Made by a program: the position numbers and the translations under genes. Positions 1 through 25,140 of a DNA stretch of 64,000 nt are shown in pieces (position 1 is the first letter of the stretch; each line of letters starts with the position of its first letter). The notes beneath the pieces are model-generated. The model saw nothing but the letters and a program-made list of their open reading frames with translations, ran no database searches and was not told where the DNA came from. The DNA is from Escherichia phage vB_EcoM_IME392, in the sequence record MH719082.1; one strand, 5' to 3'.

Positions 1-931
1 TCACATCCAGAGTTGATCCTGGTTGGAACTCTCGACCAACATCTTCCATTACGTATTCTAGAATACTGTGATCGCTATTATAACGAGAAGCAGCATCTTC
101 AAGAGTAGCGATGTAATGCTGGAAGTAGGTACGGATCTTATACCAGGAATTAAGTGATCCGAGATCAATCGTAGTTACCGGAGCTTCATTAATGTCGTCA
201 ACATAAGCTCGGATATTACTTACCTGCTTCTTGATGTTCGACACTTCCGGATACCAGTGGAGATCATCCGTCATCACCACATAGTTGCCCATATCTACTT
301 TGAGCATAGTTGCGATGATTTCCTGGATGATCGTGAACTCCACCAGATTAACGTTAGTCAATCCCCAGATTAGATCATTACTACGGTTGAATACCGTGCA
401 GTCCAGACCACCATTACGGTACTTAAACGATAGAGCAATGTTGCAGATCATATCTGCGGTATTGATGCTGCCGATGCTGTTTACCAAACCTACATCAGAA
501 TCACGGCTGGGATCGTGAATAGTAGCCACGCACTTACGGTTACCCAGGTCAGAACGGAGGCGGTCTGTTACAGTCTGGAGTTGATCGTAGTTATACAGAC
601 GCTCACCGTAAGCACCACGCCAGGTAACCATATCATCGCTAAACATCTTAGCGCGAGGAACCATAATCGACATCCAGTTATCGATTGCATAGCCACCAGA
701 CAGTACCCACAATACTTCCCCCATAATTCCGAGGATATTGTCTTTACGTTCTGGATGAGCCATCCAACGATTAATCGGATTACTTAACTCAACTACAGCA
801 TGACCGATGGATACTACCGCCGAAGAGTTAACAGAAGTTCTGGACTTCTGCAACTCACCAGCCTTATCCATAGTATTGATGCTGTTAACCAGGATTTCAG
901 TATTACTGTTACCGCGAATTACCGAGATCAT
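1..931 (-). CDS. Thymidylate-synthase-superfamily enzyme, probable deoxypyrimidylate hydroxymethylase (C-terminus lies beyond window edge)
   Basis: Not in the ORF track because there is no stop in the window. My translation of the minus strand from ATG 931-929 stays open for 310 codons (MISVIRGNSNTEILV...). TS-fold motifs: WRGAYGERLY, NRKCVATIHDPSRD, Cys segment ADMICNIALSFKY (Cys codon 445-443), RSNDLIWGLTNVN, TDDLHWY. The start overlaps the kinase stop as ATGA (928-931). Confidence 0.75.
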   Translation of the reverse strand, partial: MISVIRGNSNTEILVNSINTMDKAGELQKSRTSVNSSAVVSIGHAVVELSNPINRWMAHPERKDNILGIMGEVLWVLSGGYAIDNWMSIMVPRAKMFSDDMVTWRGAYGERLYNYDQLQTVTDRLRSDLGNRKCVATIHDPSRDSDVGLVNSIGSINTADMICNIALSFKYRNGGLDCTVFNRSNDLIWGLTNVNLVEFTIIQEIIATMLKVDMGNYVVMTDDLHWYPEVSNIKKQVSNIRAYVDDINEAPVTTIDLGSLNSWYKIRTYFQHYIATLEDAASRYNSDHSILEYVMEDVGREFQPGSTLDV

Positions 932-1650
932 TTAGAGTCCTTACGCACTGAATCAATAGACTTAACTGCAGAGGACAGTAACTCCAGACGGGCCTCCTGA
1001 GGGATCATACCAGATGGCTCATTCAGGATCATAATACCTTTACCAGTATTAGTAAAACGAGCTGTGATTGATCCAGGATACACCGGATGATTCAGAGTTA
1101 CAGAATTACACAACGCAGCACCGAATCGCTCCTCGTAGGCACGCATAGTTACCTTAAGGAGAGTAGAACTGACTGCTACAGAGTATTCCGGATCAACAAC
1201 ACGGAAGTTATTGTCCTCAATACTCTTATCCTTCGTATTGAAGAACAGAGTCATGTTATAATAATCAATAGACTCGTTACTGAGACGTAATGCCTCATCA
1301 CGAGCTTCCTGGCTAGCAAACATACTGTTATGCAGCAGGAAGTAAACGTACGAATCGAATACCGCACGATCACTGACGATCAACTCGCCACGATTGTAGG
1401 CATCCTTGAACATCTGAGTTCGCTGACGAATAAGACGCAGCTGGAACTCTACCGCTTCCATAGGATCTTCCACAGCTAAGCGCAGAATATCCATATGGGA
1501 TGTTACTCCCAGAGGAAGATGGTCACGAGTCTGTACTGCACGGAAGGTACATTCGGTTGATTCTTCCCAGCCTTTAGCCAGAGTAGATTTACCGGTACCC
1601 TGCGCACCAGACATAATTACACTGTAGCCTGGGATACTATAGTCTCTCAT
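928..1650 (-). CDS. P-loop kinase of deoxynucleoside/dNMP-kinase type (candidate hm-dNMP kinase or 5-hmdU DNA kinase)
   Basis: Walker A SGAQGTGKSTLAKG. IVSDRAVFDSYVYF resembles the ERS..D..F motif of dNK/TMPK-type kinases. I prefer ATG at 1650 (GGAGAGAATA-ATG) over the TTG at 1662 used by the track. Confidence 0.6.
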   Translation of the reverse strand: MRDYSIPGYSVIMSGAQGTGKSTLAKGWEESTECTFRAVQTRDHLPLGVTSHMDILRLAVEDPMEAVEFQLRLIRQRTQMFKDAYNRGELIVSDRAVFDSYVYFLLHNSMFASQEARDEALRLSNESIDYYNMTLFFNTKDKSIEDNNFRVVDPEYSVAVSSTLLKVTMRAYEERFGAALCNSVTLNHPVYPGSITARFTNTGKGIMILNEPSGMIPQEARLELLSSAVKSIDSVRKDSK

Positions 1651-1682
1651 TATTCTCTCCAATTAAGAATCTTTCCCACATT

Positions 1683-1713
1683 TTAACAGCCTTTCAAGAC
1701 CCTAAAAGAGCGG
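1683..1713 (-). promoter_or_regulatory. Conserved early/middle promoter-like motif, copy 1 of 15
   Basis: Minus strand reads CCGCTCTTTTAGGGTCTTGAAAGGCTGTTAA followed by AAT (TGTTAAAAT, an extended -10-like element). It lies about 30 nt upstream of the kinase ATG. Confidence 0.6.
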
Positions 1714-1739
1714 ACTAAAAAGGCTGGTGTAAATGTGAA

Positions 1740-2711
1740 CTAGCTAAACTTATACCAGCGAGGTCTCATACGGATCTCGTGATTCAGTTTATGTAGTTTC
1801 GAGAATTCGCAGAATGAGTTGGTGAACATCTGACGAGTATAGAACCGCTCATCCTCCGGCATGAAGTGGAACCATTTCTCCGGCTCCCATGCATACCCGA
1901 AATGAGCACATATCTCTTTGATGTTCTGATACCACCATTCCACGAACATCTGGTAGCCGCAAGGAGGGTTCTGGTCATTAAGCATGTACCATACCCCATC
2001 CTGCGTCCCGGGTCCACATACGATAGCATCGTTATCTGTGTACGCAGTCTCTTTAGAGTAGGACATAGTTGCCCAGCATTGATATGCCATGAACGGACCT
2101 AATCCAGATACCTGTAACAGATGCTCGATGGCCTCGGTAGCGAACGGAGACTTCCATGCCAGTAAGATAGGATCACTGTAGGTCTTCACCAGATAGGCTC
2201 TGGCAGCTACACTGTACTTAATATCCTCTGGACATACTTCATTAGCCATCTTAACTGCTGTGCTAAGGAAGTAGGCATTTGATTGCTGTGGAGCAGTGAA
2301 CGGAGGACCATCCTCATAACGACGTAGCTCTTCACGACCCATGTTATGTATGTCGTCATAGCTCATCTCATAAAGAGGAAGGACTCTGCGGAAGCGATCC
2401 ATATATGAATCACCACGGTTTATCATCTGGAAGAGTACCACGTTAAGCGCCTTACTCTCCCAGCTTAGGGAATCGTTCTCCAGAATGTTCTTGATAGCCC
2501 ATACTGTTTCACGATCGTGCTTACGGAACACGTTAGTGAATTTAAACTTACTAATCCACTTATGTTCTGTCCACGGAGGAGGTAGCTTAAGTATCTCCTT
2601 CTTATAATAAACCTCAGTCCGCTCGCGGTTATACTCCACATACTCACGTAGCTCCTCGGGATTTATCATCCCGAGTAACCCGTCGAAGTGCAAACCTAAC
2701 GGTTTAGACAT
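1740..2711 (-). CDS. Conserved 323-aa protein; tentative aGPT-Pplase-like (alpha-glutamyl/putrescinyl thymine pyrophosphorylase family) DNA hypermodification enzyme
   Basis: Clean ORF with a TAATG overlap to the upstream gene (2709-2713). The segment PPPWTEHKWISKFKFTNVFRKHDRETVW matches what I recall of aGPT-Pplase-type proteins (memory only). It sits between a DNA-glucosyltransferase-like gene and a P-loop kinase plus TS-like pair. Confidence 0.4.
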   Translation of the reverse strand: MSKPLGLHFDGLLGMINPEELREYVEYNRERTEVYYKKEILKLPPPWTEHKWISKFKFTNVFRKHDRETVWAIKNILENDSLSWESKALNVVLFQMINRGDSYMDRFRRVLPLYEMSYDDIHNMGREELRRYEDGPPFTAPQQSNAYFLSTAVKMANEVCPEDIKYSVAARAYLVKTYSDPILLAWKSPFATEAIEHLLQVSGLGPFMAYQCWATMSYSKETAYTDNDAIVCGPGTQDGVWYMLNDQNPPCGYQMFVEWWYQNIKEICAHFGYAWEPEKWFHFMPEDERFYTRQMFTNSFCEFSKLHKLNHEIRMRPRWYKFS

Positions 2712-3790
2712 TAAAGAATACCTTCTTTGGTAAAGTAGTCTATTACTTCATCCTGAAGTTCTTGTGCGTAATCCTTGCGCAGATATAGATTCTCATACTG
2801 ATGTTTCAGCAGAGCATCACGATCTTTCAGTTTCTCTGCAATCTCCGCATTACTGGAGACGATCAGAGGAGCCAGTAGCTCTTCGGGGACGCCGCTCCGG
2901 ATTATTGTTCCAGCAGCATCTTTATCCACCAGCATCAGAGTACCAGAGCTCAGGTATTCGTAATAACGGTTAGGTGGGCTGGTATAGAACGAATTACTGG
3001 AGTTCCAGTCTTCGATAAGCAGTACCGCTGCATATTTAGCCACTTCATCCAGCATCTCTGACAGCTTAAACTTAGGCAGCCAGTTAATCGGAGCAGCAGG
3101 TCCCAGCCACTTACGTTCTTTAGGATCCAGCTCTTCCCAGTTTTCCTGCTCGTAGCCGTCAAATCCTGCAAGACCACCAGTATGTTTAGCGATGGACATC
3201 TGAGCTTTGTAGCTCGGCACCGACATAAACAGTTCCAGACCATCTTGCTGGGAGAAGTACTGAGTGAACTTATGGAAGCGGCCTTCACGAGCAGCACCGT
3301 AATACAGCAGGCTATTGTCCGGCTTATCTGACGATCCATAGCGAGGCTTACGACCAGGAACGTAGGTAAGACGGTTCCAGTTAATGTGATGATAGTTCTC
3401 TTCGCTAGGAGAATACTGATTACCCCAGGAAGTACGTTCAAATGCTGCTACAACTTTAAATACAGTAGCTGCGGTGATGTGTCTCCACTGCGGACCCTGG
3501 ATACGCATCTTAGACGAGTAATCCTGTCCAATCCAGTAGAACTTAGCTCCGACATCTGCCTGGTCTACCCAGAACTTATACATCTCGTCGCGGAACTTAC
3601 AGAAGGTAGGAACACCATTGATGGCGATAATCACGTCATATTTAGTGCCATCTTCCATAGCCTTAACGAACTTAGGAGTATCGTCCAACAGGTCAGCTTG
3701 AAGTCCGTAGGCTAACCAGGAAGCCAGAGTATTACTGGCAATGATGGATTTATCGCTGCATGGCGAAAAGTTAGTTACTGCAATCTTCAT
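2711..3790 (-). CDS. T4 beta-glucosyltransferase-like DNA glycosyltransferase (GT-B, GT63-like)
   Basis: 359 aa versus 351 aa for T4 BGT. Colinear matches to my recollection of T4 BGT: MKIAVTNFS / MKIAIINMG; YDVIIAINGVPTF / YDRLIVVNSSINF; LLYYGAAREGRFHKF / DVIYGGSFRSGQRESK; AAVLLIEDWNSSNSF...TLMLVDKD / IAALIIGDKNYNDNF...AVMLIDEE. Confidence 0.6.
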   Translation of the reverse strand: MKIAVTNFSPCSDKSIIASNTLASWLAYGLQADLLDDTPKFVKAMEDGTKYDVIIAINGVPTFCKFRDEMYKFWVDQADVGAKFYWIGQDYSSKMRIQGPQWRHITAATVFKVVAAFERTSWGNQYSPSEENYHHINWNRLTYVPGRKPRYGSSDKPDNSLLYYGAAREGRFHKFTQYFSQQDGLELFMSVPSYKAQMSIAKHTGGLAGFDGYEQENWEELDPKERKWLGPAAPINWLPKFKLSEMLDEVAKYAAVLLIEDWNSSNSFYTSPPNRYYEYLSSGTLMLVDKDAAGTIIRSGVPEELLAPLIVSSNAEIAEKLKDRDALLKHQYENLYLRKDYAQELQDEVIDYFTKEGIL

Positions 3791-3818
3791 GTTTAATTTC
3801 TCCGTAGGCTGTCACAAT

Positions 3819-3849
3819 TTAACAGCCTTTTAGCTCATCAAAGAAGCGA
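3819..3849 (-). promoter_or_regulatory. Conserved promoter-like motif, copy 2
   Basis: Minus strand reads TCGCTTCTTTGATGAGCTAAAAGGCTGTTAA followed by ATT. The upstream half overlaps the stop of the GT2 gene. It lies about 25 nt before ATG 3790. Confidence 0.55.
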
Positions 3850-4872
3850 GTTAGCTGATGCCCAGCTCAGCCAGTTATCGTTGAGATCGGTCAGGTAGGA
3901 GTAATCCTTATTCAGACCGAATACAGTACGGTTAGTTCCGTCGAACTTCATTATACCAGCGCCAGGAGCTCTGATGATTGCATCTTCCGTAGCCAGACAA
4001 TATTCTTTCAAGTATTCCTGGATGTTGGGACGAATACGACGGAAGGAACTATCTGCCGAGTCATAGTGGAACATATCTGCGCAGTGCCACTGTACGTAGG
4101 ATTTATCCGGACGGCTGAGTAGTTCATTACGGGTAACCATATCTTTAGGAGAATATCCCAGCTTAGCTACAGTGACTTCGTGAATACCTCCACCATTAGA
4201 CGAAGTATCCATCAGCCAGTTTTCGTCCCAGTAGAACGAAGTACCAGTACCAGTTACCTGTCCAACCTTCCAGCCCATCGCCATACCTTTAAACAACAGG
4301 TAGCAATCTTCTCCTACGGTCAACTGTTGGAAGGTTATATCGAACAGCCAGAACATCTTCTCACTGGTCTTGACCATGATACCGAGGTCAGTGGCCGGAG
4401 CAGTGTTATTATGTGACTGACGATCGCATAGTTCAACAATCTTGTAGTTACGATTCTTGAAGCTACGGACGAACGCCATCTCAAACTCAGATCCCTCGAA
4501 GTCTATAACGGAACGGTCCAGATGGAAAATATTATCTGCGAACCAGACATCATCATCCACGAAGTAGCAGATGTCTGGACACCAGTTCTGATCCTCCATT
4601 AAAATCCATGCCTTATCAAGAGCATGAGCTCGGATTCTTCCGATTACCGGATTATCGTACTTAGGACGATGCCAGAAATTAAACTGCTCGTCCCCACCGA
4701 ACTGCTCTTCCAGAACTGCCTTATCTTCTTCGGAGGCATCCTGCATAAAGTAGAAGAAACGATACTCGATAGAGTCGTCAGTCTTCTTAGCATCTTTGAA
4801 CGACTGAATCTGACGGAGTACCGACTTCATACGATGATAGGTTGGGATGATAAAAGCCACTTTGGTAGTCAT
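3838..4872 (-). CDS. Family-2-type (GT-A) glycosyltransferase
   Basis: N-terminal VAFIIPTYHRMKSV (the GT2 signature IPTYNR-like) and a DXD-like YFVDDDVWF. Only 6 nt separate it from the upstream deacetylase gene. Confidence 0.7.
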   Translation of the reverse strand: MTTKVAFIIPTYHRMKSVLRQIQSFKDAKKTDDSIEYRFFYFMQDASEEDKAVLEEQFGGDEQFNFWHRPKYDNPVIGRIRAHALDKAWILMEDQNWCPDICYFVDDDVWFADNIFHLDRSVIDFEGSEFEMAFVRSFKNRNYKIVELCDRQSHNNTAPATDLGIMVKTSEKMFWLFDITFQQLTVGEDCYLLFKGMAMGWKVGQVTGTGTSFYWDENWLMDTSSNGGGIHEVTVAKLGYSPKDMVTRNELLSRPDKSYVQWHCADMFHYDSADSSFRRIRPNIQEYLKEYCLATEDAIIRAPGAGIMKFDGTNRTVFGLNKDYSYLTDLNDNWLSWASANSLL

Positions 4873-4878
4873 ATTTAT

Positions 4879-5490
4879 TTATCCAATTTGACGAACTAAG
4901 CGAAACCCTTCGGCGTACGGCCACTGGGCAGAATATCCACGTAAGGTGGCTAGAGCTAAGATACTCTGGGTATCTCGGTCTGACTTAATCTGGGAGTCGA
5001 ATCGTCCCATAGCCTGGCACTTACACTCAATATCGTCCTTATTCAGACGCTCGAAGTAATTAGGTTCCATCTGACCGAACTGGGTCAGGGACTCGGCATA
5101 CTCATATTCCAGGATAAGCCAGTTATACGCTCGGAGAGCTACACGAGCAGCATGATTAACTAGTTGATGGTCCTGGTGTAGGCTACTGAACGGAATATAG
5201 ACTACATCCGGCCTGATTTTAGCAACATAGTCCGCAATATCCTTAGCCAATTGCGGAATATCCTTCTGAGTCATACCATCGCCTGTGGAGGCATCGTTAC
5301 GCTCCAGGCAATGTACTTCTTTGATATTCGGATAGACACCGAATGCTGCTTCGGCTTCACCACGACGGGTCTCGTCCGGAGCAGTTACTTCGAGGATGAA
5401 AAATTGGTCGTCGCGGAATTTGCTCATAATACCTCCGCAACCCAGAATCTCATCATCGTGATGTGGGCTGATAATCAATCGTGACTTCAT
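4879..5490 (-). CDS. PIG-L/LmbE-family N-acetylglucosaminyl deacetylase
   Basis: LIISPHHDDEILGCGG (PIG-L motif HPDDE) and a later HQDHQLV metal-binding-type motif. RBS GAGGA lies before ATG 5490. Confidence 0.8.
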   Translation of the reverse strand: MKSRLIISPHHDDEILGCGGIMSKFRDDQFFILEVTAPDETRRGEAEAAFGVYPNIKEVHCLERNDASTGDGMTQKDIPQLAKDIADYVAKIRPDVVYIPFSSLHQDHQLVNHAARVALRAYNWLILEYEYAESLTQFGQMEPNYFERLNKDDIECKCQAMGRFDSQIKSDRDTQSILALATLRGYSAQWPYAEGFRLVRQIG

Positions 5491-5505
5491 TATTAATCCT
5501 CGCTA

Positions 5506-5541
5506 CACAAAAATGGGGTTAGGCCGTAGAGACCTAACCCC
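5506..5541 (-). terminator. Rho-independent terminator-like hairpin
   Basis: 9-bp stem ggggttagg / cctaacccc (5515-5523 / 5533-5541), followed on the minus strand by TTTTT (plus-strand aaaaa 5509-5513). It shares the 17-nt string ctacacaaaaatggggt with the terminator at 13341-13357. Confidence 0.6.
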
Positions 5542-5557
5542 GTACGCCTCTGACACC

Positions 5558-5588
5558 TTAACAGCCTTTTAGGTCATCAAACAGGAGG
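5558..5588 (-). promoter_or_regulatory. Conserved promoter-like motif, copy 3
   Basis: Minus strand reads CCTCCTGTTTGATGACCTAAAAGGCTGTTAA followed by GGT. It overlaps the 3' end of the transporter gene and lies upstream of the 5515-5541 hairpin. Confidence 0.5.
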
Positions 5589-6959
5589 AGTTTCCTTAGC
5601 CAAGAATACTTTAGGTACAAAGATCTTGAGGAACCCGAATAGAATACACAATACCCCAATCAGTACCGGAACAGCCGATACAGCTACCAGAGTCTTCGTT
5701 ACAGTTACTACGTCACCACCTGCCCAGTTAAGTGCAGCAGCAACTACACCCATGCTTACAATCCAGAATACACGAGTTCTAGGAGCGGTCATGGACTCTA
5801 CCGTAATACCTGCTGAGTCATGACCTGTAATAAAGAACAGAATCACAGACACGAGGGTAATTACTGAGAATATCCATCCGCCTGGGAAATTAGCCAGAAG
5901 CTGGAAGATATCCTGAGCACCATGTTGCAAACCGGCTACACCGAATACGGTAAACCATACGTTACTGATAATGGTAGGGAACAGTACACATCCCAGGATC
6001 AGTTCGCGAATAGTACGGCCGTAAGAGATACGTGCCACAAACGCTCCGACGAATAATGCCCAACCTACCCAGGCTGCATAGTAAGCATAAGGCCAGCTAG
6101 CCAGCCATTGCTTCTCTTCAGCAGTACTGCCAATGTTTACCGACATAGGAATAATCTGGAGCAGATAGCTGCCAGAATAGGTGATGGTCTTCCAGAGGTA
6201 TTCAAAGAATGTACCACTTACAGCAACGAATGCCATAATAGATAGAGCTACGATTACATTATATCTGGATAACCACTTAACCCCACGATCGACACCAGTT
6301 ACGGCACTAAGTACAGTGCCCAGAGTCAGGAGTGCGATAATGGTGTAAGGACCAACATCCACACCAAGGAACTCTTTAAATCCAGAACTGATCGGGCCTA
6401 CTGCGTAGACGAACGACAGGGTTAAGCCTATGATGGTCGAGAAGAGTAAGCTTATCGTATTAAGGTTATTCAGAGTTCGGGACTTGAATAACTGATTAAG
6501 CGGACGGTCTTCACCACGTACATGCAGTAAGTACCCGAATGCCACCCCTACGACTGCATACACAGCCCATGCATTAAGTCCCCAGTCAAAGAAGGTAGTT
6601 ACCATATTCTGACGTTCGGACATACCCTCCTGATGATGGTACATAGGTTCGAGTACGCCATAATAAATCATGGATACACCCATACCGGTACTAAACATCA
6701 TAGAGTAATAGGTAAAGCGATTGTATTTCGGAGTACCTTTACCCAGCTTAATGTTACCATGTTTGCTGAATACAAAGAATGCCAGGAACGCCAGGAAGAT
6801 CAGCGAAGACCAGGTAAATATGAATCCATACTGAGATATAAATACAGACTTACTCCAGTCCATTACAGCACCAAACTGGGTGGGAGCAAACATAATGGCG
6901 AGTACAATACCCACCGTTACCAGCACCGTCCCCCAGGTAACTACCTTTGAATCGGACAT
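5577..6959 (-). CDS. BCCT-family (betaine/carnitine/choline-type) secondary transporter
   Basis: 460 aa, hydrophobic throughout with about 11-12 predicted helices by eye. FSKHGNIKLGKGTPKYNRFTYYSMMFSTGMGVSMIYYGVLEP matches the BCCT N-terminal block (RLG...F..SWFAMLFAAGMGIGL.FWGVAEP). WPYAYYAAWVGWALFVGAFVARISYGRTIRE matches the BCCT signature W.....W..W.PFVG.FIARIS.GRTIRE. Confidence 0.75.
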   Translation of the reverse strand: MSDSKVVTWGTVLVTVGIVLAIMFAPTQFGAVMDWSKSVFISQYGFIFTWSSLIFLAFLAFFVFSKHGNIKLGKGTPKYNRFTYYSMMFSTGMGVSMIYYGVLEPMYHHQEGMSERQNMVTTFFDWGLNAWAVYAVVGVAFGYLLHVRGEDRPLNQLFKSRTLNNLNTISLLFSTIIGLTLSFVYAVGPISSGFKEFLGVDVGPYTIIALLTLGTVLSAVTGVDRGVKWLSRYNVIVALSIMAFVAVSGTFFEYLWKTITYSGSYLLQIIPMSVNIGSTAEEKQWLASWPYAYYAAWVGWALFVGAFVARISYGRTIRELILGCVLFPTIISNVWFTVFGVAGLQHGAQDIFQLLANFPGGWIFSVITLVSVILFFITGHDSAGITVESMTAPRTRVFWIVSMGVVAAALNWAGGDVVTVTKTLVAVSAVPVLIGVLCILFGFLKIFVPKVFLAKETPPV

Positions 6960-6962
6960 TGA

Positions 6963-7871
6963 TTATTCCTCAATTACGCCCTTAGCGATTAACTGGCGAC
7001 GGACGTATGCGTAGCCAGCAGGTGAAGTAGCGAGGACGATGTCCGCACTACGGAAGTTGGTTTCGATATAGAAGCACTCCTGAAGATCCCGAGTACAGAA
7101 GAGCTCAGTACTCATCATACCCTCGCGTACGTTACATGCATCTGCAACGAATTGCGCAACATCTTCGAAGTGGTCTACCGAATGACTATAGCCGAATCCA
7201 CGGGCATCAGTAGATATAACGTAGTTAGGGCAGTACGGAGTGAAGTCAGTATCTTCGTAGGATTTACCCTGGATAGTGAAGATATCTGCATAGTCCTTGA
7301 ACCCGCTCGGGCTAACCAGAAGATCCCAGGCAACTACCATACCATCGATAACATCTGCCTGAAGTACCAGAGAGGTAGTATATTCGTCCGGTGCCTTATC
7401 GCAGACCAAAATTGGGGAGTCTCCCAGAAGGTCCGACATAGTGCCCGCACCCTTGCCCCCGTGAACACGATCACGGCGTACAAACGCCTCCTGAGGCCTC
7501 TGGTACAGTCTGAACGACGGTACAATCAGCGAATCAGGCAGAGTTCCCAGGTTAGCTTCGGAGCGAAGGCAGGATAATTGGTCAGCTTTAGACCACGTAC
7601 TTTCGATAGCGTGCAGATCGTTACCGATTTTGGTATAGATATAGCTTTCCGGATTACGGCACTTACCCTGATTCAACTCTTCGATAACCGAGTCGAAATA
7701 AGGAAGTCGTACTGATCCCTCACGAGGAGCAGTTAACGCTACTGAGCCATGCTTGGTATGATCCTGATCAACTACCATAACCTGGTCCAGACTTACACCC
7801 ATCTTAAGAATCTGGGATAATGTAGCTGCCGTGTGATTAGTGCAGCCAATCATCAAATCTAACTTCTTCAT
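6963..7871 (-). CDS. ATP-grasp-like ligase (tentative)
   Basis: 302 aa. Glycine-rich RRDRVHGGKGAGT and C-terminal FYIETNFRSAD (the E-x-N metal-binding motif of ATP-grasp enzymes). A 3-nt gap to the transporter gene implies co-transcription. Confidence 0.4.
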   Translation of the reverse strand: MKKLDLMIGCTNHTAATLSQILKMGVSLDQVMVVDQDHTKHGSVALTAPREGSVRLPYFDSVIEELNQGKCRNPESYIYTKIGNDLHAIESTWSKADQLSCLRSEANLGTLPDSLIVPSFRLYQRPQEAFVRRDRVHGGKGAGTMSDLLGDSPILVCDKAPDEYTTSLVLQADVIDGMVVAWDLLVSPSGFKDYADIFTIQGKSYEDTDFTPYCPNYVISTDARGFGYSHSVDHFEDVAQFVADACNVREGMMSTELFCTRDLQECFYIETNFRSADIVLATSPAGYAYVRRQLIAKGVIEE

Positions 7872-7899
7872 TTTAATTCCTCAGTTAACTTGTACAACC

Positions 7900-7930
7900 T
7901 AACAGCCTTTCGAACCCTAAAAAGAGCGAA
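7900..7930 (-). promoter_or_regulatory. Conserved promoter-like motif, copy 4 (variant CTAACAG)
   Basis: Minus strand reads TCGCTCTTTTTAGGGTTCGAAAGGCTGTTAG followed by GTT. It lies about 28 nt upstream of ATG 7871. Confidence 0.5.
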
Positions 7931-7965
7931 ATAATAGATATCTAGCCATCTCGTAAGATGGCTAT
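7931..7965 (-). terminator. Terminator-like hairpin after the methyltransferase gene
   Basis: 9-bp stem tagccatct / agatggcta (7944-7952 / 7957-7965) with a 4-nt loop. The minus-strand downstream tract is T-rich but interrupted (GATATCTATTATTT). Confidence 0.45.
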
Positions 7966-7972
7966 GTATATA

Positions 7973-8713
7973 TTACTTTAATTCGGAGAGATCTGCGATC
8001 TTCACCTTAGCTGATACATCCCAGATTCCTTCACCAAATCCGGTATCTTCCAGCAGCTTAGGCACTTCACGTTTCTGTACCTTAGATTGCTCGTACTTAA
8101 GCAGAGGAATATTACCGGTCTTATCTGATTGATCCCACAGATAAGTAGCAGCACCGATGTTATCGAACAGTGCGAGATCTGGATTAAACTGGGTAAGGAG
8201 TCGGCAGTCCCAGTGAGACTTATGTTCCTCGAAAGGATTAGTTTCCGTGCCACGCTGACGATACTCATAGTTAGGAGTACCGATCACGATTTTAGCCTTA
8301 GACTGGAATAGCTTAGACAACACCATAAGCCCGTCTTCGCTATCCAGATGCTCCAACACATCCAGCCAGATAATAGTGCCGAATTTATCCAGCTCTTCAA
8401 TAGGAAGATCTTTCAACAGTTCAACGATATTGCAGATATAGATATCGCTATATACATTTACACTGCCTTTGATGTAGTCTTCGCAGATGTCCAGACCTGT
8501 AATCTGACCATCGAATCCTGCGTTACGGAGAGCAAGACCAATTTCTCCACGACCTAATCCCATATCCAGGATTGGCCCGGAGATAATTTCGTTACGGAGC
8601 ATCCATTGGAGAAAGTGCTTCTGGACTAAGTAGGAGGTGCCTCCGTTGCCCAGTGAAGCCTTCGTGACCTTAGTACCAGGAACGAAATTACACTCGATAT
8701 GTTTACCAAACAT
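7973..8713 (-). CDS. Class I SAM-dependent methyltransferase
   Basis: Motif I ILDMGLGRGEIG, GLDICEDY, and the IIWLDVLEHL block typical of Methyltransf_11/23-type enzymes. Confidence 0.75.
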   Translation of the reverse strand: MFGKHIECNFVPGTKVTKASLGNGGTSYLVQKHFLQWMLRNEIISGPILDMGLGRGEIGLALRNAGFDGQITGLDICEDYIKGSVNVYSDIYICNIVELLKDLPIEELDKFGTIIWLDVLEHLDSEDGLMVLSKLFQSKAKIVIGTPNYEYRQRGTETNPFEEHKSHWDCRLLTQFNPDLALFDNIGAATYLWDQSDKTGNIPLLKYEQSKVQKREVPKLLEDTGFGEGIWDVSAKVKIADLSELK

Positions 8714-8739
8714 GTTCTGTCCTCATTAGTTTCGACACC

Positions 8740-8770
8740 TTAACAGCCTTTGGAGCCGTAAAAGAAGTGG
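8740..8770 (-). promoter_or_regulatory. Conserved promoter-like motif, copy 5
   Basis: Minus strand reads CCACTTCTTTTACGGCTCCAAAGGCTGTTAA followed by GGT. It sits between the 8785-8812 terminator and ATG 8713. Confidence 0.6.
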
Positions 8771-8784
8771 TATTGTACATATTC

Positions 8785-8812
8785 AAAAATTAGGGTGGCC
8801 GAAGCCACCCTA
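8785..8812 (-). terminator. Rho-independent terminator (UUCG loop)
   Basis: Stem tagggtggc / gccacccta (8791-8799 / 8804-8812). The loop cgaa is UUCG on the minus strand. A T5 run follows on the minus strand (plus-strand aaaaa 8785-8789). Confidence 0.75.
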
Positions 8813-8817
8813 GTTAG

Positions 8818-10065
8818 TTACAGTTTACCGATCATCTTCTGAATCATCTCGTCAGAAGTCTGATTCTCTACCTTAGCACGACGTTCTTGCAGATTAGCAA
8901 TGCGGTCGTCGTGATCTTTCTTACGTAGCATGCTGATGCTACGGCTAAGGCAGGAATTCAACACTTCCTGGGTAATACCGAGAGCTTTGATGATCTGAGC
9001 ATCAGACTTATCCTGCATAACCAGCTCGCCCACTTTAGGAAGAATCTGGTAAATCTCGATGTCTCGGTCAATCTTCTTAAGAGACTCAGTCTTATGGACG
9101 GAGAATGCCTGATTGTAGAGAGCCATCGTGACTGCAATCCAGTCGCGAATACCCATCGTCACCAGTTGACCATTGTAGGCTACCTGGATACGATGCGAGC
9201 GGTTCATGTAAGCAATATTCATGCATGCTTCGTGAACCTCGTCCATATCGATGGTCCTGATACGGGGAGCCTTCATTACTCGGATATAGATCTTATCCTT
9301 GGACATGTTCTTGACCAGGATCTTACCTTCTGATAACCACTTATTCAGGAACCCGATGCGAGGAGTAATTACCTCACCAGACCCGATGATGTCGATGGTG
9401 TCGGTATTGACGCGAGTTACCTTAAGGGTAAGGCCTAAGCGACCTACACCAGTTTCCCATAAGGACTTAAGGTCTGACTTACTCGGCACGATATCATACC
9501 CGTACTGAGCCTTAAGCAGATTATAATCGTCATGCTTGTAGGCTTCCAGCAGACTCTCGTAAGTGAATGCTGGGATACGGGACTGAATACCAGTAGCCCA
9601 TGAGAAGGTACCATACATCAGAGCATACGGAATAGGCACTGGAAGGTATGCGTATTCCATCTTCTCTTCACCTTCAACCTGCGGAACATAGTCCGCTAGA
9701 CCGAAGTAGTATTCTGCACGATCTTCGTTCAGGCCAACCTTCGTGTAACGAGGAGCAGCACCAGGAACTTCTTCCAGCAACTTAACGCCGAAAGATCCCT
9801 GACCATCAATAGCACCGATGCGAGCAAGACGGGAAATAGTCCCATCGATAGACTGGTCACCGAATGGGTGTAGCGACTGAGTTTCTGAGATAGCGCTCAG
9901 AGTCCCCACCAGCTTCCCACGAGCAATGCTATTCAGAGCCATGTAGATACGGCGCTGGGCAGGAATCAGGCCATCGATACCGGGAACTACACGATGAAGA
10001 GCACAATACACACTGTAGTCAGTGTAGTTCTTGGTGATGAATTCAGAAATCTTTACCTGTTCCAT
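8818..10065 (-). CDS. DNA topoisomerase II, DNA-cleavage subunit (T4 gp52-like / GyrA N-terminal-like)
   Basis: DGLIPAQRRIYMAL (GyrA/ParC motif DGLKPVQRR) and AAPRYTKVGL (active-site Tyr context). Adjacent to the ATPase/Toprim subunit. Confidence 0.85.
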   Translation of the reverse strand: MEQVKISEFITKNYTDYSVYCALHRVVPGIDGLIPAQRRIYMALNSIARGKLVGTLSAISETQSLHPFGDQSIDGTISRLARIGAIDGQGSFGVKLLEEVPGAAPRYTKVGLNEDRAEYYFGLADYVPQVEGEEKMEYAYLPVPIPYALMYGTFSWATGIQSRIPAFTYESLLEAYKHDDYNLLKAQYGYDIVPSKSDLKSLWETGVGRLGLTLKVTRVNTDTIDIIGSGEVITPRIGFLNKWLSEGKILVKNMSKDKIYIRVMKAPRIRTIDMDEVHEACMNIAYMNRSHRIQVAYNGQLVTMGIRDWIAVTMALYNQAFSVHKTESLKKIDRDIEIYQILPKVGELVMQDKSDAQIIKALGITQEVLNSCLSRSISMLRKKDHDDRIANLQERRAKVENQTSDEMIQKMIGKL

Positions 10066-24348: not shown

Positions 24349-25140
24349 TCAGTACCGAGGATCAGTATCCTGATAGTCGCGAATTAGGTCATAGACGAGC
24401 ACATCCAGACGAGTAGCATCTTCACGTTTCATGCGGGTAGGTCTGTACATATGGATACATACACAATGCTTAGACCAGACCTTAGCAGTCTGACGCTCCG
24501 TAAGTTCTTTACGGTCGATAATGTACTTCTCGAATGCGTGATAAGAGATAGGCTTTGATACTTCGACATGCTGGCACATATCGAGGAACTGCGGGTAGTC
24601 GTCAGTTAAGAAGCGACTGAATACGTCCTGGTAATAAGAGTAGTTAGGGAATTTACCACCCTGCTCCAGAGATAACGCATGAGTCTCGATCTCCTTCAAC
24701 ATCAGAGCCATAAATTCCTGATTATTGCTGGGAGAGGTCCACATGTTTATCTCGCAGTAATCTAACCGAGGGGAATAAACACGTACCTGAGTCTCGTGAG
24801 GAGTATACGTTTCGTGAGGGCTTCTGATAAAGAGAGTATCAGCATCTACATAGGAGTAACCACGAAGATCCATCATTACCTGAATCTTGAGTCGCAGATA
24901 GTCACATACAGAGGCCATCTTAGCCTTAGTTTTCAGGATATTATACGCCTTCTCCATAATAGGATCTCTGGCGAATAAATCCTGGATCATAACGCAACGG
25001 CAACCTTCGATAATATTCTCTTCGTTATCGATCACCAGTACATGATCATTAGGTCCGTATTTCTGTAAGGACTTAATGCATTCCCGAACATGGATAGGCA
25101 TTTTGGGTCCTACCCAAAGCTGGAAATAATTCTGACTCAT
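24349..25140 (-). CDS. GT32-like (DXD sugar-binding) glycosyltransferase
   Basis: FQLWVGPKMP (GT32 N-terminal IWIG..lP), ASVCDYLRLKI (SD.lRy block), YSYVDADTLF (DxD). RBS GAGGT lies before ATG 25140. Confidence 0.55.
   Translation of the reverse strand: MSQNYFQLWVGPKMPIHVRECIKSLQKYGPNDHVLVIDNEENIIEGCRCVMIQDLFARDPIMEKAYNILKTKAKMASVCDYLRLKIQVMMDLRGYSYVDADTLFIRSPHETYTPHETQVRVYSPRLDYCEINMWTSPSNNQEFMALMLKEIETHALSLEQGGKFPNYSYYQDVFSRFLTDDYPQFLDMCQHVEVSKPISYHAFEKYIIDRKELTERQTAKVWSKHCVCIHMYRPTRMKREDATRLDVLVYDLIRDYQDTDPRY

Follow-up and report, generated by a model that had tools for sequence, protein, structure and literature searches.

Candidate sugar-decorating genes in a predicted thymidine-hypermodification operon of Escherichia phage vB_EcoM_IME392

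Three neighboring genes of Escherichia phage vB_EcoM_IME392, which encode a BGT-like GT-B enzyme related to T4 DNA beta-glucosyltransferase (BGT, CAZy family GT63), a GT-A-fold glycosyltransferase candidate and a PIG-L-family zinc deacetylase, may form the sugar-decorating arm of an operon for thymidine hypermodification, a reading to which we give about an even chance (0.5). The genes lie in the 64,000-nucleotide stretch of phage DNA analyzed here (the window; Table 1). Because they share one operon with hydroxymethyluracil genes, the sugar enzymes most likely act on the phage's own DNA. The product would be a short sugar chain, possibly bearing a free amino group, of a kind not described on DNA. 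If this is true, then the modification unites bulky sugars and cationic amines, both known themes of phage pyrimidine hypermodification, and would block host nucleases. As IME392 is a cultured phage, the proposal is directly testable.

Table 1. Features of the sugar cluster and its surroundings in the IME392 window
Feature	Coordinates	Strand	Length (aa)	Basis or remark
Thymidylate synthase (TS) homologue, N-terminal 310 codons, predicted dUMP hydroxymethylase	1..931	-		Translation; continues past window
P-loop kinase	928..1662	-	244	Pfam AAA_28 2e-9; weak dNK and thymidylate-kinase matches
HMUDK_hel / clade-1 aGPT-Pplase-type protein	1740..2711	-	323	Pfam PF18723 3.2e-35, whole protein
BGT-like GT-B, remote T4 DNA beta-glucosyltransferase homologue	2711..3790	-	359	hhalign profile-profile match
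Orphan GT-A-fold glycosyltransferase candidate	3838..4872	-	344	6 nt downstream of PIG-L
PIG-L/LmbE-family (CE14) zinc deacetylase	4879..5490	-	203	Pfam PF02585; heads the unit, behind the hairpin
Terminator-like hairpin	5515..5541	-		11-bp stem, 7 GC pairs, T-run; between BCCT and PIG-L
BCCT-family (betaine/carnitine/choline) transporter	5577..6959	-	460	Pfam BCCT 1e-92; adjacent upstream unit
Conserved protein, family not recognised	6963..7871	-	302	3 nt upstream of BCCT
Class I SAM-dependent methyltransferase	7973..8713	-	246	Pfam Methyltransf_25/23/31/11, 4e-5 to 1e-3
Third possible glycosyltransferase (DXD sugar-binding region)	24349..25140	-	263	Pfam Gly_transf_sug 5.5e-4, under cut-off

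An earlier note, made from the letters of the window, had read three ORFs across positions 2711-5490, and they stand exactly there, on the minus strand. Compared with Escherichia phage EP_H11, which is 93% identical to the window at the nucleotide level, the BGT-like, GT-A and PIG-L genes show synonymous:nonsynonymous codon differences of 49:6, 70:12 and 36:5, and none contains an internal stop; all three are real genes under purifying selection. Their products have no TM segments, indicating a soluble module. The unit is bounded by terminators, with the hairpin of Table 1 as its upstream edge, and comprises, co-oriented, the PIG-L, GT-A, GT-B, HMUDK_hel, P-loop kinase and TS genes. Overlaps of 1 nt (GT-B stop and HMUDK_hel start codon) and 4 nt (kinase stop and TS start) join adjacent genes, and the sugar genes as a group sit between topoisomerase and nucleotide-metabolism genes, to which they are translationally coupled. 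The gene order recurs in EP_H11 and in a metagenomic relative of 75% identity. The GT-A, PIG-L, BCCT and 302-aa genes are confined to a small clade, and comparative support comes from three genomes.

Profile comparison identifies the GT-B protein as a genuine, though very distant, relative of T4 BGT. In hhalign, a 74-sequence alignment of the BGT-like family matched a 7-sequence BGT alignment (whose T4 member we checked to be 100% identical to T4 b-gt) end to end over 290 columns at 98.6% (E 1.1e-15). This bears out the colinearity that the earlier note had claimed: the N-terminal block, where MKIAVTNFS pairs exactly with MKIAIINMG, the YGG..R.G.R block and the C-terminal block all align exactly. 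D90 is aligned with BGT D100, Y163/G165/R168/R171 with Y186/G188/R191/R195, D261 with D258, and R275/E278 with R269/E272, so that the catalytic Asp and the UDP-binding Arg/Arg/Arg/Glu are kept; all of these except D90 are invariant in the BGT-like family, as is Y277. The differences are nevertheless large. Identity is about 20% in the profile alignment, the invariant BGT Glu22 lies opposite a gap and has no counterpart, and some 40 residues are inserted at about 195-235. The relationship is invisible to BLAST and HMMER, with none detectable by phmmer or by hmmsearch with the 74-sequence profile against the PDB, or by tblastn against 50,697 phage records. Pfam Glyco_trans_1_2 matches weakly (0.023), and AF2 gave no usable model (pLDDT 38.7). 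Both T4 BGT and the IME392 protein are phage enzymes encoded beside a TS-family hydroxymethylase, but the IME392 acceptor is probably 5-hmU rather than 5-hmC, because its partners are HMUDK_hel and a dUMP-type TS homologue.

Almost certainly, the base acted on is the thymine replacement 5-hydroxymethyluracil and not hmC. The TS homologue, whose EP_H11 counterpart is annotated "thymidylate synthase" and whose orthologue in the related locus L008 has Pfam Thymidylat_synt, carries Asn at the position equivalent to ThyA N177, where T4 dCMP hydroxymethylase has Asp. The phage genome also encodes a dCTP deaminase, HMUDK_hel is a neighbor, and IME392 and EP_H11 have been placed in the UDG-PolA group, for which thymidine glycosylation is predicted or shown and whose members YerA41, SP-15 and Carin-5 have oligosaccharide-modified thymidine. 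For these reasons, we read the base as derived from uracil, and the T-even hmC frame of the earlier note gives way to thymidine hypermodification. The P-loop kinase (PHROG "thymidylate kinase," 1.2e-11) is probably a (hydroxymethyl)dUMP kinase; its relatives were found in Ab1-TPeters and RP13 only, and in Ab1-TPeters it is paired with a TS homologue and accompanied by no GT or aGPT gene. It has no HMUDK_HMUD1 match in Pfam, and no recognisable 5-hmU DNA kinase was found in IME392, although it could conceivably act as one itself. The HMUDK_hel protein has matches in 371 phage records, mostly of ViI-like phages, and its C301-E302-x-x-K305 motif is invariant among 27 homologues. Amino acid transfer by aGPT-Pplases has been demonstrated for clade 2 only, the HMUDK_hel clade (clade 1) being without demonstrated activity; because the Cys-Glu dyad is kept, the protein may install a non-sugar group, altering what the transferases act on.

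In viral contigs, the wider BGT-like family, with about 288 metagenomic representatives at E<=1e-3, keeps two kinds of company: HMUDK_hel and TS homologues, or ParB and TET/JBP dioxygenases. Among 53 nonredundant viral loci, HMUDK_hel is adjacent in 29 and a TS homologue in 25. The remaining 21 are rich in ParB and TET/JBP dioxygenases, with no C5-methylase among the 25 commonest neighbor families listed for that group; these loci agree with published work on ParB-dependent thymidine dioxygenases. Ranked by identity, the nearest metagenomic relatives of this GT-B fall within such rows of ParB, TET/JBP and GT genes.

For the second transferase candidate, the earlier note's GT-A fold and DDD motif stand, whereas its GT2 assignment found no family-level match. 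The deacetylase it had proposed is borne out by PF02585 (6.7e-14; 52.9 bits against a cut-off of 28.2) and by the motifs SPHHDDE (8-14) and HQDH (105-108), which align with the PIG-L metal and catalytic motifs, the metal motif being intact. The protein is 97.5% identical to its EP_H11 counterpart and matches PHROG 11796 (2.5e-21). Full-length PDB matches are TT1542 (1UAN, 1.9e-6) and diacetylchitobiose deacetylase (8BGN, 1.7e-4), and the best NCBIfam matches are BshB1 and BshB2, with all scores far under the equivalog cut-offs. In the mycothiol (MshA/MshB), bacillithiol (BshA/BshB), GPI-anchor (PIG-A/PIG-L) and aminoglycoside (BtrM/BtrD) pathways, a zinc deacetylase of the PIG-L family acts after a GlcNAc transferase, yielding GlcN-inositol, GlcN-malate, GlcN-PI and paromamine, respectively, and deacetylation frees an amine on which the next step acts. 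By analogy with MshA/MshB and BshA/BshB, GlcNAc addition followed by deacetylation is plausible in IME392. However, those pathways use GT4 transferases on small-molecule or lipid acceptors, in contrast to the BGT-like and GT-A enzymes and presumed DNA acceptor of the phage.

Collectively, these data suggest a model in which the TS homologue and the nucleotide-type kinase would substitute 5-hydroxymethyl-dU for dT in the DNA. Once the DNA is replicated, the BGT-like enzyme would cooperate with the HMUDK_hel protein, as their genes overlap and the two domains are naturally fused in one metagenomic relative (P0073). The BGT-like enzyme would transfer the first sugar from a UDP-sugar to the hydroxymethyl oxygen of 5-hmU in DNA or, alternatively, to a hydroxyl of a group installed on 5-hmU by the HMUDK_hel protein. 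The GT-A enzyme would add a second sugar, most likely GlcNAc, from which the PIG-L enzyme would strip the acetyl group to leave glucosamine, its amine protonated near neutral pH. Addition of the first sugar by a GT-B enzyme and the second by a GT-A enzyme, with a TS homologue encoded nearby, has a precedent in relatives of the T-even phages. More speculatively, the methyltransferase, the 302-aa protein and the BCCT transporter may serve to decorate that amine further. The literature searched contained no description of a deacetylated amino sugar on phage DNA, in agreement with the earlier note, but the novelty is narrower than it supposed: HexNAc has been reported on phage 5hmC, through metavirome GTs, and in the thymidine hypermodification of Carin-5.

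Several other readings account for part of this evidence. Glucosylation of 5-hydroxymethylcytosine by the BGT-like enzyme and addition of a second sugar, as in the gentiobiosyl-hmC of T2 and T6, would fit the T4 BGT homology, and the hmC phages Moon, PG7 and STML-198 have gp42, a GT-A "beta-glucosyl-HMC-alpha-glucosyltransferase" and BGT in a row, with the GT-A gene directly upstream of the BGT-type gene and near a TS homologue, as in IME392. It is established that in T-even phages a GT-A-fold enzyme adds the second sugar, and two metagenomic members of the BGT-like family (L052 and L079) adjoin TS homologues with Asp at the specificity position. Yet the IME392 TS homologue has Asn there, the overlapping HMUDK_hel belongs to a family with ties to 5-hmU, the genome encodes a dCTP deaminase, the phage is classed with thymidine-modified phages, and the TET/JBP-linked relatives lack C5-methylases among their listed neighbor families. 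Moreover, the T-even systems have no deacetylase, and their GT-A enzyme shows no significant similarity to that of IME392, with only the xED-motif region aligning (probability 4%). We thus consider an hmC target very improbable. A target other than nucleic acid, such as virion proteins or glycans of the host envelope (by seroconversion, or by modification of O-antigen or LPS), also appears quite improbable. The PIG-L and GT genes of some phages may add sugars to virion proteins and not to DNA, annotated glycosyltransferases and "glucosaminyl deacetylases" lie away from DNA genes in the genomes of mycobacteriophages and Arthrobacter phages, and the authors of the DLP3 study considered LPS modification for its GT. 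Against this, the three IME392 proteins lack TM segments, our searches found no bacterial homologues of the GT-A and GT-B proteins, the phage is lytic and this region shows no lysogeny genes, and the company of the BGT-like family consists of TS, HMUDK_hel, TET and ParB genes. The earlier note had named a lipid-carrier or O-antigen cassette as the case against its module; we instead find the genes embedded among genes for DNA precursors and DNA modification and translationally coupled to their neighbors.

Two further readings keep the modified thymidine but change the part played by the sugar enzymes. They might build a soluble amino-sugar compound without ever touching DNA, the HMUDK_hel/aGPT-Pplase protein then attaching it to activated 5-hmU, as with putrescine, glycine and serine in other phages. 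PIG-L enzymes usually act on small GlcNAc-glycosides, aGPT-Pplases move free nucleophiles to DNA, the Cys-Glu-x-x-Lys motif is invariant, and the adjoining transporter could provide an aglycone. We nonetheless judge this route distinctly unlikely: the characterised relatives of the BGT-like enzyme all act on DNA, family members occur with ParB and TET/JBP where there is no aGPT gene, the fusion with a DNA-binding HMUDK_hel domain favors action on DNA, and no DNA 5-hmU kinase is recognisable to activate the base. It is also unlikely that DNA carries neutral sugars only, with PIG-L deacylating a nucleotide-sugar precursor, a host metabolite or a non-sugar base amide comparable to 5-acetylaminomethyl-dU. 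Amidases such as Mca belong to the PIG-L family, phage PaMx11 has acetylated amines on its thymidine, and the PIG-L gene of Stenotrophomonas phage DLP3 adjoins the nucleotide-sugar enzyme genes WcaG and WecE. In IME392, however, PIG-L lies just 6 nt from GT-A in one shared unit, the cluster contains neither an acetyltransferase nor a nucleotide-sugar enzyme, and the closest PDB and NCBIfam likenesses are to deacetylases of GlcNAc-glycosides.

Sugar-decorated 5-hmU in IME392 would have partial parallels elsewhere. Base J, made by the kinetoplastid JBP thymine hydroxylase and JGT (not known to be a BGT relative), and the phage thymidine-dioxygenase clusters also involve glycosylation of 5-hmU in DNA, but there by thymidine oxidation, in contrast to the pre-replicative, TS-dependent origin predicted for IME392. 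Published ParB-dependent and ParB-independent phage thymidine dioxygenases are linked to GTs and thymidine hypermodification. SP-15, YerA41 and Carin-5 share with IME392 and EP_H11 the "RP13-like," UDG-fused PolA group, and Carin-5 thymidine bears two hexoses and one HexNAc, its cluster encoding GTs and a predicted polysaccharide deacetylase. That deacetylase is from another family, tblastn found no matches in these three phages to the three IME392 proteins, and their modification includes a pentyl-type linker and phosphate, whereas no radical-SAM or comparable linker genes were found in the IME392 window. ViI, M6, PaMx11 and PhiW-14, with 5-HMUDK and clade-2 aGPT-Pplases, share the 5-hmU platform and a homologous helical fold with Cys-Glu conserved. 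The IME392 protein, in contrast, matches PF18723 only, and, with no kinase of the 5-HMUDK type, PLP enzyme or radical-SAM enzyme present, the phage has sugar enzymes instead. Unrelated phages also carry PIG-L next to GT4 and ParB genes: in V-YDF132 of Vibrio and in DLP3 and DLP5 of Stenotrophomonas, a PIG-L (25-28% identical) is clustered with a methyltransferase and a glycosyltransferase, and DLP3 DNA resists 15 restriction enzymes. Unlike IME392, their GT is GT4 (BshA-like), nucleotide-sugar enzymes or WbqC-like proteins and ParB are present, and there is no TS or HMUDK_hel gene.

Upstream of the unit, the BCCT transporter has eight TM-like segments and keeps its position in EP_H11 and L008; NCBIfam betaine_BCCT matches at 1.8e-72, far under the equivalog cut-off, and it is possible that the protein supplies a quaternary-amine substrate or is an unrelated auxiliary gene. 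The 302-aa protein, with no Pfam or PDB match, has four homologues only and the invariant motifs FVRRDRVHGGKGAG and YIE(T/S)NFR; by eye only, it resembles ATP-grasp. The methyltransferase, whose Pfam scores are all just under cut-offs, is flanked by two terminator-like hairpins similar to that of Table 1 (8791-8812 and 7943-7964) and is replaced by other genes in L008. The third possible glycosyltransferase lies 19 kb from the sugar cluster of IME392 but is homologous (2e-17) to L008:1956-2738, which falls inside the L008 version of the cluster.

All genes from 1 to about 29,000 lie on the minus strand, and the 359-aa product of the BGT-like gene is 100% identical to the vB_EcoM_IME392 protein, which fixes the source of the window. 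Spacing in the modification region is tight: 6 nt lie between the PIG-L gene and the gene for the 344-aa protein, the 359-aa gene and the HMUDK_hel gene have one nucleotide in common, and the kinase and thymidylate-synthase (TS) homologue genes overlap by 4 nt. On the coding strand, hairpins resembling terminators occur at 8791-8812, 7943-7964 and 5515-5541 (a scan returned 16 terminator-like sites against 7.5 ± 2.9 in shuffles). The tight spacing and the hairpin positions thus group the three sugar genes with those for HMUDK_hel, the kinase and TS in a single unit; ORF302 (the 302-aa protein gene) and the BCCT gene form one separate upstream unit and the methyltransferase gene another. Escherichia phage EP_H11 is the only close cultured relative, with 93% nucleotide identity across 900-8800, and synonymous differences far outnumber non-synonymous ones in all eight genes compared (49:6 for the 359-aa gene, 70:12 for the 344-aa gene and 36:5 for the PIG-L gene). 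These eight are real, constrained genes, and include the three on which the earlier note had built its sugar module.

Genes of the modification region of IME392 and two further ORFs of the window
Feature	Coordinates	Strand	Support
921-aa ORF	13374-16139	-	
263-aa ORF	24349-25140	-	
Topoisomerase II subunits	10068-12053, 8818-10065	-	L008 (75%-identical metagenomic relative) orthologues have gyrase B/Toprim and topoisomerase IV Pfam matches
Class I methyltransferase	7973-8713	-	
302-aa protein, no family (ORF302)	6963-7871	-	
BCCT transporter	5577-6959	-	Pfam 1e-92
PIG-L deacetylase	4879-5490	-	Pfam
344-aa protein (second enzyme)	3838-4872	-	
359-aa protein (first enzyme)	2711-3790	-	
HMUDK_hel protein	1740-2711	-	Pfam 3e-35
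P-loop kinase	928-1662	-	
Thymidylate-synthase homologue, runs off the window	1-931	-	

The first enzyme of the module had been described as colinear with the DNA β-glucosyltransferase (BGT) of phage T4. Neither phmmer against the PDB, tblastn against phages, nor a 74-sequence HMM against the PDB detects any similarity to BGT; in single-sequence and HMM-versus-sequence searches the protein matches no solved structure and no phage except EP_H11, and in Pfam it has only a weak, sub-threshold match to Glyco_trans_1_2 in its C-terminal half. Exhaustive HMMER searching of 1.84 billion representatives collects 288 proteins (E ≤ 1e-3), most of them about 300 aa long, as a BGT-like family, and in a 74-member alignment of this family Y163, G165, R168, R171, D261, R275, Y277 and E278 are invariant and D90 is nearly so. 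This alignment was compared by hhalign with one of T4 BGT and six homologues (32-61% identity) from Acinetobacter, Escherichia, Serratia, Salmonella, Enterococcus and Lactobacillus phages, the T4 sequence being confirmed by tblastn as 100% identical to T4 b-gt. The two profiles match along their whole length, 290 columns between the initial Met and the C-terminus (98.6% probability, E 1.1e-15), pairing D90 with BGT D100, Y163/G165/R168/R171 with Y186/G188/R191/R195, D261 with D258, and R275/E278 with R269/E272; these BGT counterparts, from D100 to E272, are invariant in the BGT alignment as well. In the Morera structures of BGT, D100 is the catalytic base and R191/R195/R269/E272 are UDP-binding residues. 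The invariant Glu22 of BGT has no counterpart in the IME392 protein, where hhalign places a gap after A18-S19-N20, and the IME392 protein carries an insertion at about 195-235. An AF2 model built from a 2-sequence alignment was unusable (pLDDT 38.7), leaving the weak Glyco_trans_1_2 match as the pointer to a putative two-domain GT-B fold. Because the relationship appears in the profile–profile match and not in phmmer, hmmsearch or tblastn, the family is best regarded as a sister of BGT (GT63) and not a plain member: the colinearity holds, the assignment to BGT proper does not.

The second enzyme had been called a GT-A enzyme of family GT2. Its 344-aa sequence has only three homologues in 5.8 billion proteins, none in a pattern scan of the viral contigs of IMG/VR, and no sequence match in Pfam, NCBIfam, PHROGs or the PDB even at E ≤ 10; a profile search of the PDB was also empty. 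Across the 4 homologues the motifs IPTYHR, DDD (D106-D107-D108) and GED (G187-E188-D189) are invariant. An AF2 model from the 4-sequence alignment is confident for residues 1-110 only, which form a domain of alternating strands and helices in which DDD directly follows predicted strand 101-105. The protein thus displays a single Rossmann-like fold, a DXD motif and an acceptor-side xED motif, and on this model it is a candidate transferase of predicted GT-A fold. The GT-A part of the assignment is thereby retained and GT2 is given up, as no GT2 or any other GT-A sequence model matches. A relationship to the second-sugar enzyme of T-even phages was not supported, the profiles aligning over 25 columns (the xED region only) at a probability of 4%.

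The third enzyme is a PIG-L/LmbE deacetylase, as the earlier note had it. Its product scores 52.9 bits against PF02585 (gathering score 28.2) and matches PHROG 11796; it carries the P-H-x-D-D motif near the N-terminus and H-x-D-H about 100 residues on, and aligns full-length in the PDB with TT1542 and diacetylchitobiose deacetylase, SPHHDDE (8-14) and HQDH (105-108) pairing with APHPDDG and HPDH of TT1542. The best NCBIfam matches, BshB1/BshB2, are far below their cut-offs. By family precedent an N-acetylglucosaminide is a plausible substrate. Beyond the IME392 clade, phage PIG-L genes occur in 46 phage records. In Vibrio phage V-YDF132 and Stenotrophomonas phage DLP3, both unrelated to IME392, PIG-L is clustered with a methyltransferase, a GT4 transferase and ParB, and these clusters also hold WbqC-like proteins or WcaG/WecE. 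DLP3 DNA is reported to resist 15 restriction enzymes. The recurrence of clustered PIG-L and glycosyltransferase genes in unrelated phages, and such restriction-resistant DNA, suggest that the IME392 arrangement is not a one-off.

Several independent lines point to replacement of thymine, rather than to the hmC named in the earlier note. The HMUDK_hel gene, which lies downstream of the 359-aa gene and overlaps it, matches PF18723 over its whole length, and its product matches 371 phage records, mostly of ViI-type phages, a group known for 5-hmU-derived hypermodification. The IME392 TS homologue has Asn at the position of E. coli ThyA N177, where T4 dCMP hydroxymethylase has D179; in mutagenesis work, Asn or Asp at this specificity position sets uracil against cytosine. 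In two papers IME392 and EP_H11 are grouped with phages whose family-A polymerase is fused to UDG, a group in which YerA41, SP-15 and Carin-5 bear oligosaccharides on T, and the same papers predict T modification of both phages from the aGPT-Pplase gene; for IME392, a dCTP deaminase and a TS homologue are listed as well. In the literature on IME392 DNA modification we found these predictions, from polymerase group and aGPT-Pplase gene, and no chemistry.

The wider BGT-like family bears on the same question. A pattern scan of IMG/VR gave 80 BGT-like loci, or 53 clusters when grouped at ≥80% identity. Of these 53, 29 are flanked by an HMUDK_hel gene, usually directly upstream or downstream, and 25 by a TS homologue; Asn occupies the specificity position in 24 of 27 flanking TS homologues. 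The typical row is aGPT1 > BGT-like > (radical SAM/SPASM > small kinase >) TS > HD > PolA, the small kinase being AAA_33. The other 21 clusters, into which the members most similar to the IME392 protein fall, have neither HMUDK_hel nor TS and are rich in directly adjacent ParB and TET/JBP dioxygenase genes. Among 129 neighbours surveyed with Pfam, Tet_JBP was counted 10 times, ParB_N 8, radical SAM 5 and the TET-associated glycosyltransferase TAGT 3, with no C5-methylase among the 25 commonest neighbour families listed. The combination of ParB and TET/JBP is the signature of ParB-dependent T-dioxygenases, published in 2026. One metagenomic protein of 634 aa (P0073) is a fusion in which residues 13-310 align end to end with the IME392 enzyme (2e-20) and 347-599 form an HMUDK_hel domain, the order of the overlapping IME392 genes (window 1740-3790). 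Some 5-hmU DNA kinases carry this helical domain at their C-terminus, and the fusion suggests that it may be a reusable module for handling 5-hmU. In another BGT-like member (P0115) the fusion partner is a methyltransferase domain. None of the accessory genes of the metagenomic loci (radical SAM/SPASM, AAA_33 kinase, HD, ParB, TET/JBP, UvrD and others) is present in the IME392 window, and in this comparison the GT-A, PIG-L, BCCT and ORF302 genes are confined to IME392, EP_H11 and L008. The picture that emerges is of a widespread core (TS, HMUDK_hel and BGT-like genes) with what appears to be a clade-specific extension (GT-A, PIG-L, perhaps more). With the HMUDK_hel neighbour, the TS residue and the phage group, these family links displace hmC in favour of 5-hmU, and context points to 5-hmU as the probable acceptor of the BGT-like enzyme, instead of the 5-hmC in duplex DNA to which BGT transfers glucose from UDP-glucose. 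At two of the loci (L052 and L079) the BGT-like gene lies beside a TS homologue with Asp at the specificity position, and these members may act on hmC.

At E ≤ 1 the IME392 HMUDK_hel protein matches PF18723 alone and so falls outside clade 2, the clade of ViI gp247 and M6 gp51 for which amino-acid:DNA transferase activity has been demonstrated. Among cultured phages it is closest to the second ViI-type paralogue (SFP10 SFP_0121), and PaMx11 gp46 is matched only at 7e-4. The motif Cys-Glu-x-x-Lys, including C301-E302, is invariant in 27 homologues, and C301-E302 is the putative equivalent of the active-site Cys-Glu dyad of clade 2. Five positions that are 93% conserved in the rest of the family are changed in IME392 and L008 (H50 for D, Q95 for R, T215 for D, T225 for D and D238 for R), and the invariant R31, F58, R63, D66, G233, G235, G239, C301, E302 and K305 are kept; the departures may reflect a changed substrate or partner.

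The adjacent kinase matches AAA_28, dNK and thymidylate kinase but not the 5-HMUDK model PF18748, and relatives of it occur only in RP13 and Acinetobacter phage Ab1-TPeters. In the latter (109.7 kb) the kinase precedes a TS homologue in the same replication backbone, with no HMUDK_hel/aGPT or sugar gene. Our first reading took the HMUDK_hel protein and the kinase for a classical pair of 5-HMUDK and amino-acid:DNA transferase. It was dropped because the Pfam match is to HMUDK_hel (clade 1) only, the 5-HMUDK signature is absent from the kinase, and the Ab1-TPeters kinase is paired with TS alone. Given this context and the missing 5-HMUDK match, the kinase is read as a putative nucleotide kinase for 5-hmdUMP, a DNA-kinase role being also possible; a 2025 preprint in which no 5-HMUDK could be found is in line with this reading. 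Ab1-TPeters has the backbone kinase-TS-HD-primase-helicase-PolA in common with IME392 and has no HMUDK_hel, GT, PIG-L or BCCT genes, which makes it a natural "minus-module" comparator.

Collectively, these results suggest a route in which 5-hmdU would enter DNA at replication, the BGT-like enzyme would attach the first sugar, aided by or after the HMUDK_hel protein, the GT-A enzyme would add a second, and PIG-L would turn GlcNAc into GlcN by de-acetylation, by analogy with MshA/B, BshA/B, PIG-A/L and BtrM/D. The order GT-B then GT-A has precedent in T-even phages, where gp42, the GT-A gene and b-gt stand in a row. We give this mechanism as a whole about one chance in two. The gene identities and linkages on which it is built are shown, and its chemical steps are inferred. 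What it keeps of the sugar module first proposed is the outline, namely a DNA-directed chain of two or more sugars with a plausible amino sugar; what it replaces is the base, 5-hmU for hmC. The same three genes might have been read as an O-antigen or LPS seroconversion cassette, the alternative that the earlier note named as fatal to its proposal. However, no TM segments were detected in the three enzymes, and homologue searches found them only in phage and viral sequences and assemblies, with no relatives in bacterial polysaccharide loci, all of which argues against such a cassette.

Taken to its end, the DNA-directed reading predicts that thymine is replaced by 5-hmU bearing a short glycan that ends in a free-amine hexosamine, perhaps further decorated, and that the BGT-like family is the missing phage 5-hmU glycosyltransferase; we hold the two jointly as a tentative proposal that is less likely than not to be correct. 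If true, this would be the first free-amine amino sugar, cationic and de-N-acetylated, on any natural DNA. The adjacent methyltransferase, ORF302 and a compound imported by the BCCT transporter might then serve to N-methylate or N-acylate the amine. Together with HMUDK_hel, the BGT-like family may, moreover, represent the viral equivalent of base J synthesis, and one with a wide distribution among uncultured phages.

Which restriction, CRISPR and glycosylase defences a phage can evade depends on the hypermodifications of its DNA, and such systems have repeatedly supplied the enzymes of epigenomics, T4 BGT among them. Glycosyltransferases beside TS homologues or TET enzymes in phages are already documented, HexNAc has been produced on 5-hmC from metavirome glycosyltransferases, and the T modification of Carin-5 includes HexNAc, its cluster having a predicted polysaccharide deacetylase. 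The literature searched holds no description of the BGT-like family or of its link or fusion to HMUDK_hel, no PIG-L in a T-hypermodification operon and no free-amine sugar on DNA. What is new is therefore a large unannotated sister family of BGT, tied to 5-hmU-producing genes and naturally fused to a 5-hmU-handling helical domain, which offers a definite candidate for an enzyme that glycosylates 5-hmU in DNA beyond the kinetoplastids. New, too, are a PIG-L gene inside such an operon, predicting a cationic amino sugar on DNA that would join the "sugar" and "amine" strategies, and a membrane transporter beside a DNA-modification operon, which hints that some modifications may need imported metabolites. 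IME392 and EP_H11 are cultured on E. coli, so these predictions are open to standard testing.

The BCCT gene is full-length, stands directly upstream of the modification operon in a lytic phage, and is kept at the same place in EP_H11 and L008. The encoded protein has diverged from bacterial BetT, BetP and CaiT, with NCBIfam scores that all fall far short of the equivalog thresholds; the gene may serve to bring in a substrate for the modification, or else serve in osmoprotection. ORF302, separated from it by a 3-nt gap, has 4 homologues only, in which FVRRDRVHGGKGAG and YIE(T/S)NFR are invariant; it looks ATP-grasp-like by eye, and an assignment as an ATP-grasp ligase (motifs GGKGAG and E-x-N-x-R) found no Pfam or PDB profile support. 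The class I SAM methyltransferase gene heads the cluster, with hairpins on both sides, and in L008 the corresponding position is occupied by a DXD transferase, a phosphatidylserine-decarboxylase-like protein (2e-7), a weakly ATP-grasp-like protein and a CxxCxxCC protein.

Elsewhere in the window, the 263-aa product matches the DXD sugar-binding region Gly_transf_sug, though below threshold. Its L008 homologue (2e-17) is encoded inside the L008 modification cluster, and for that reason it may be a third IME392 transferase of the same pathway. The 921-aa product joins an N-terminal calcineurin-like phosphoesterase (Mre11/SbcD-like, residues 1-185) to an SMC/Rad50-type ATPase with a zinc hook, and looks like a fused SbcCD/Mre11-Rad50 nuclease. 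The coding strand switches at about 29200, from minus up to 29195 to plus from 29293, and the sign of the GC skew flips in the same area.
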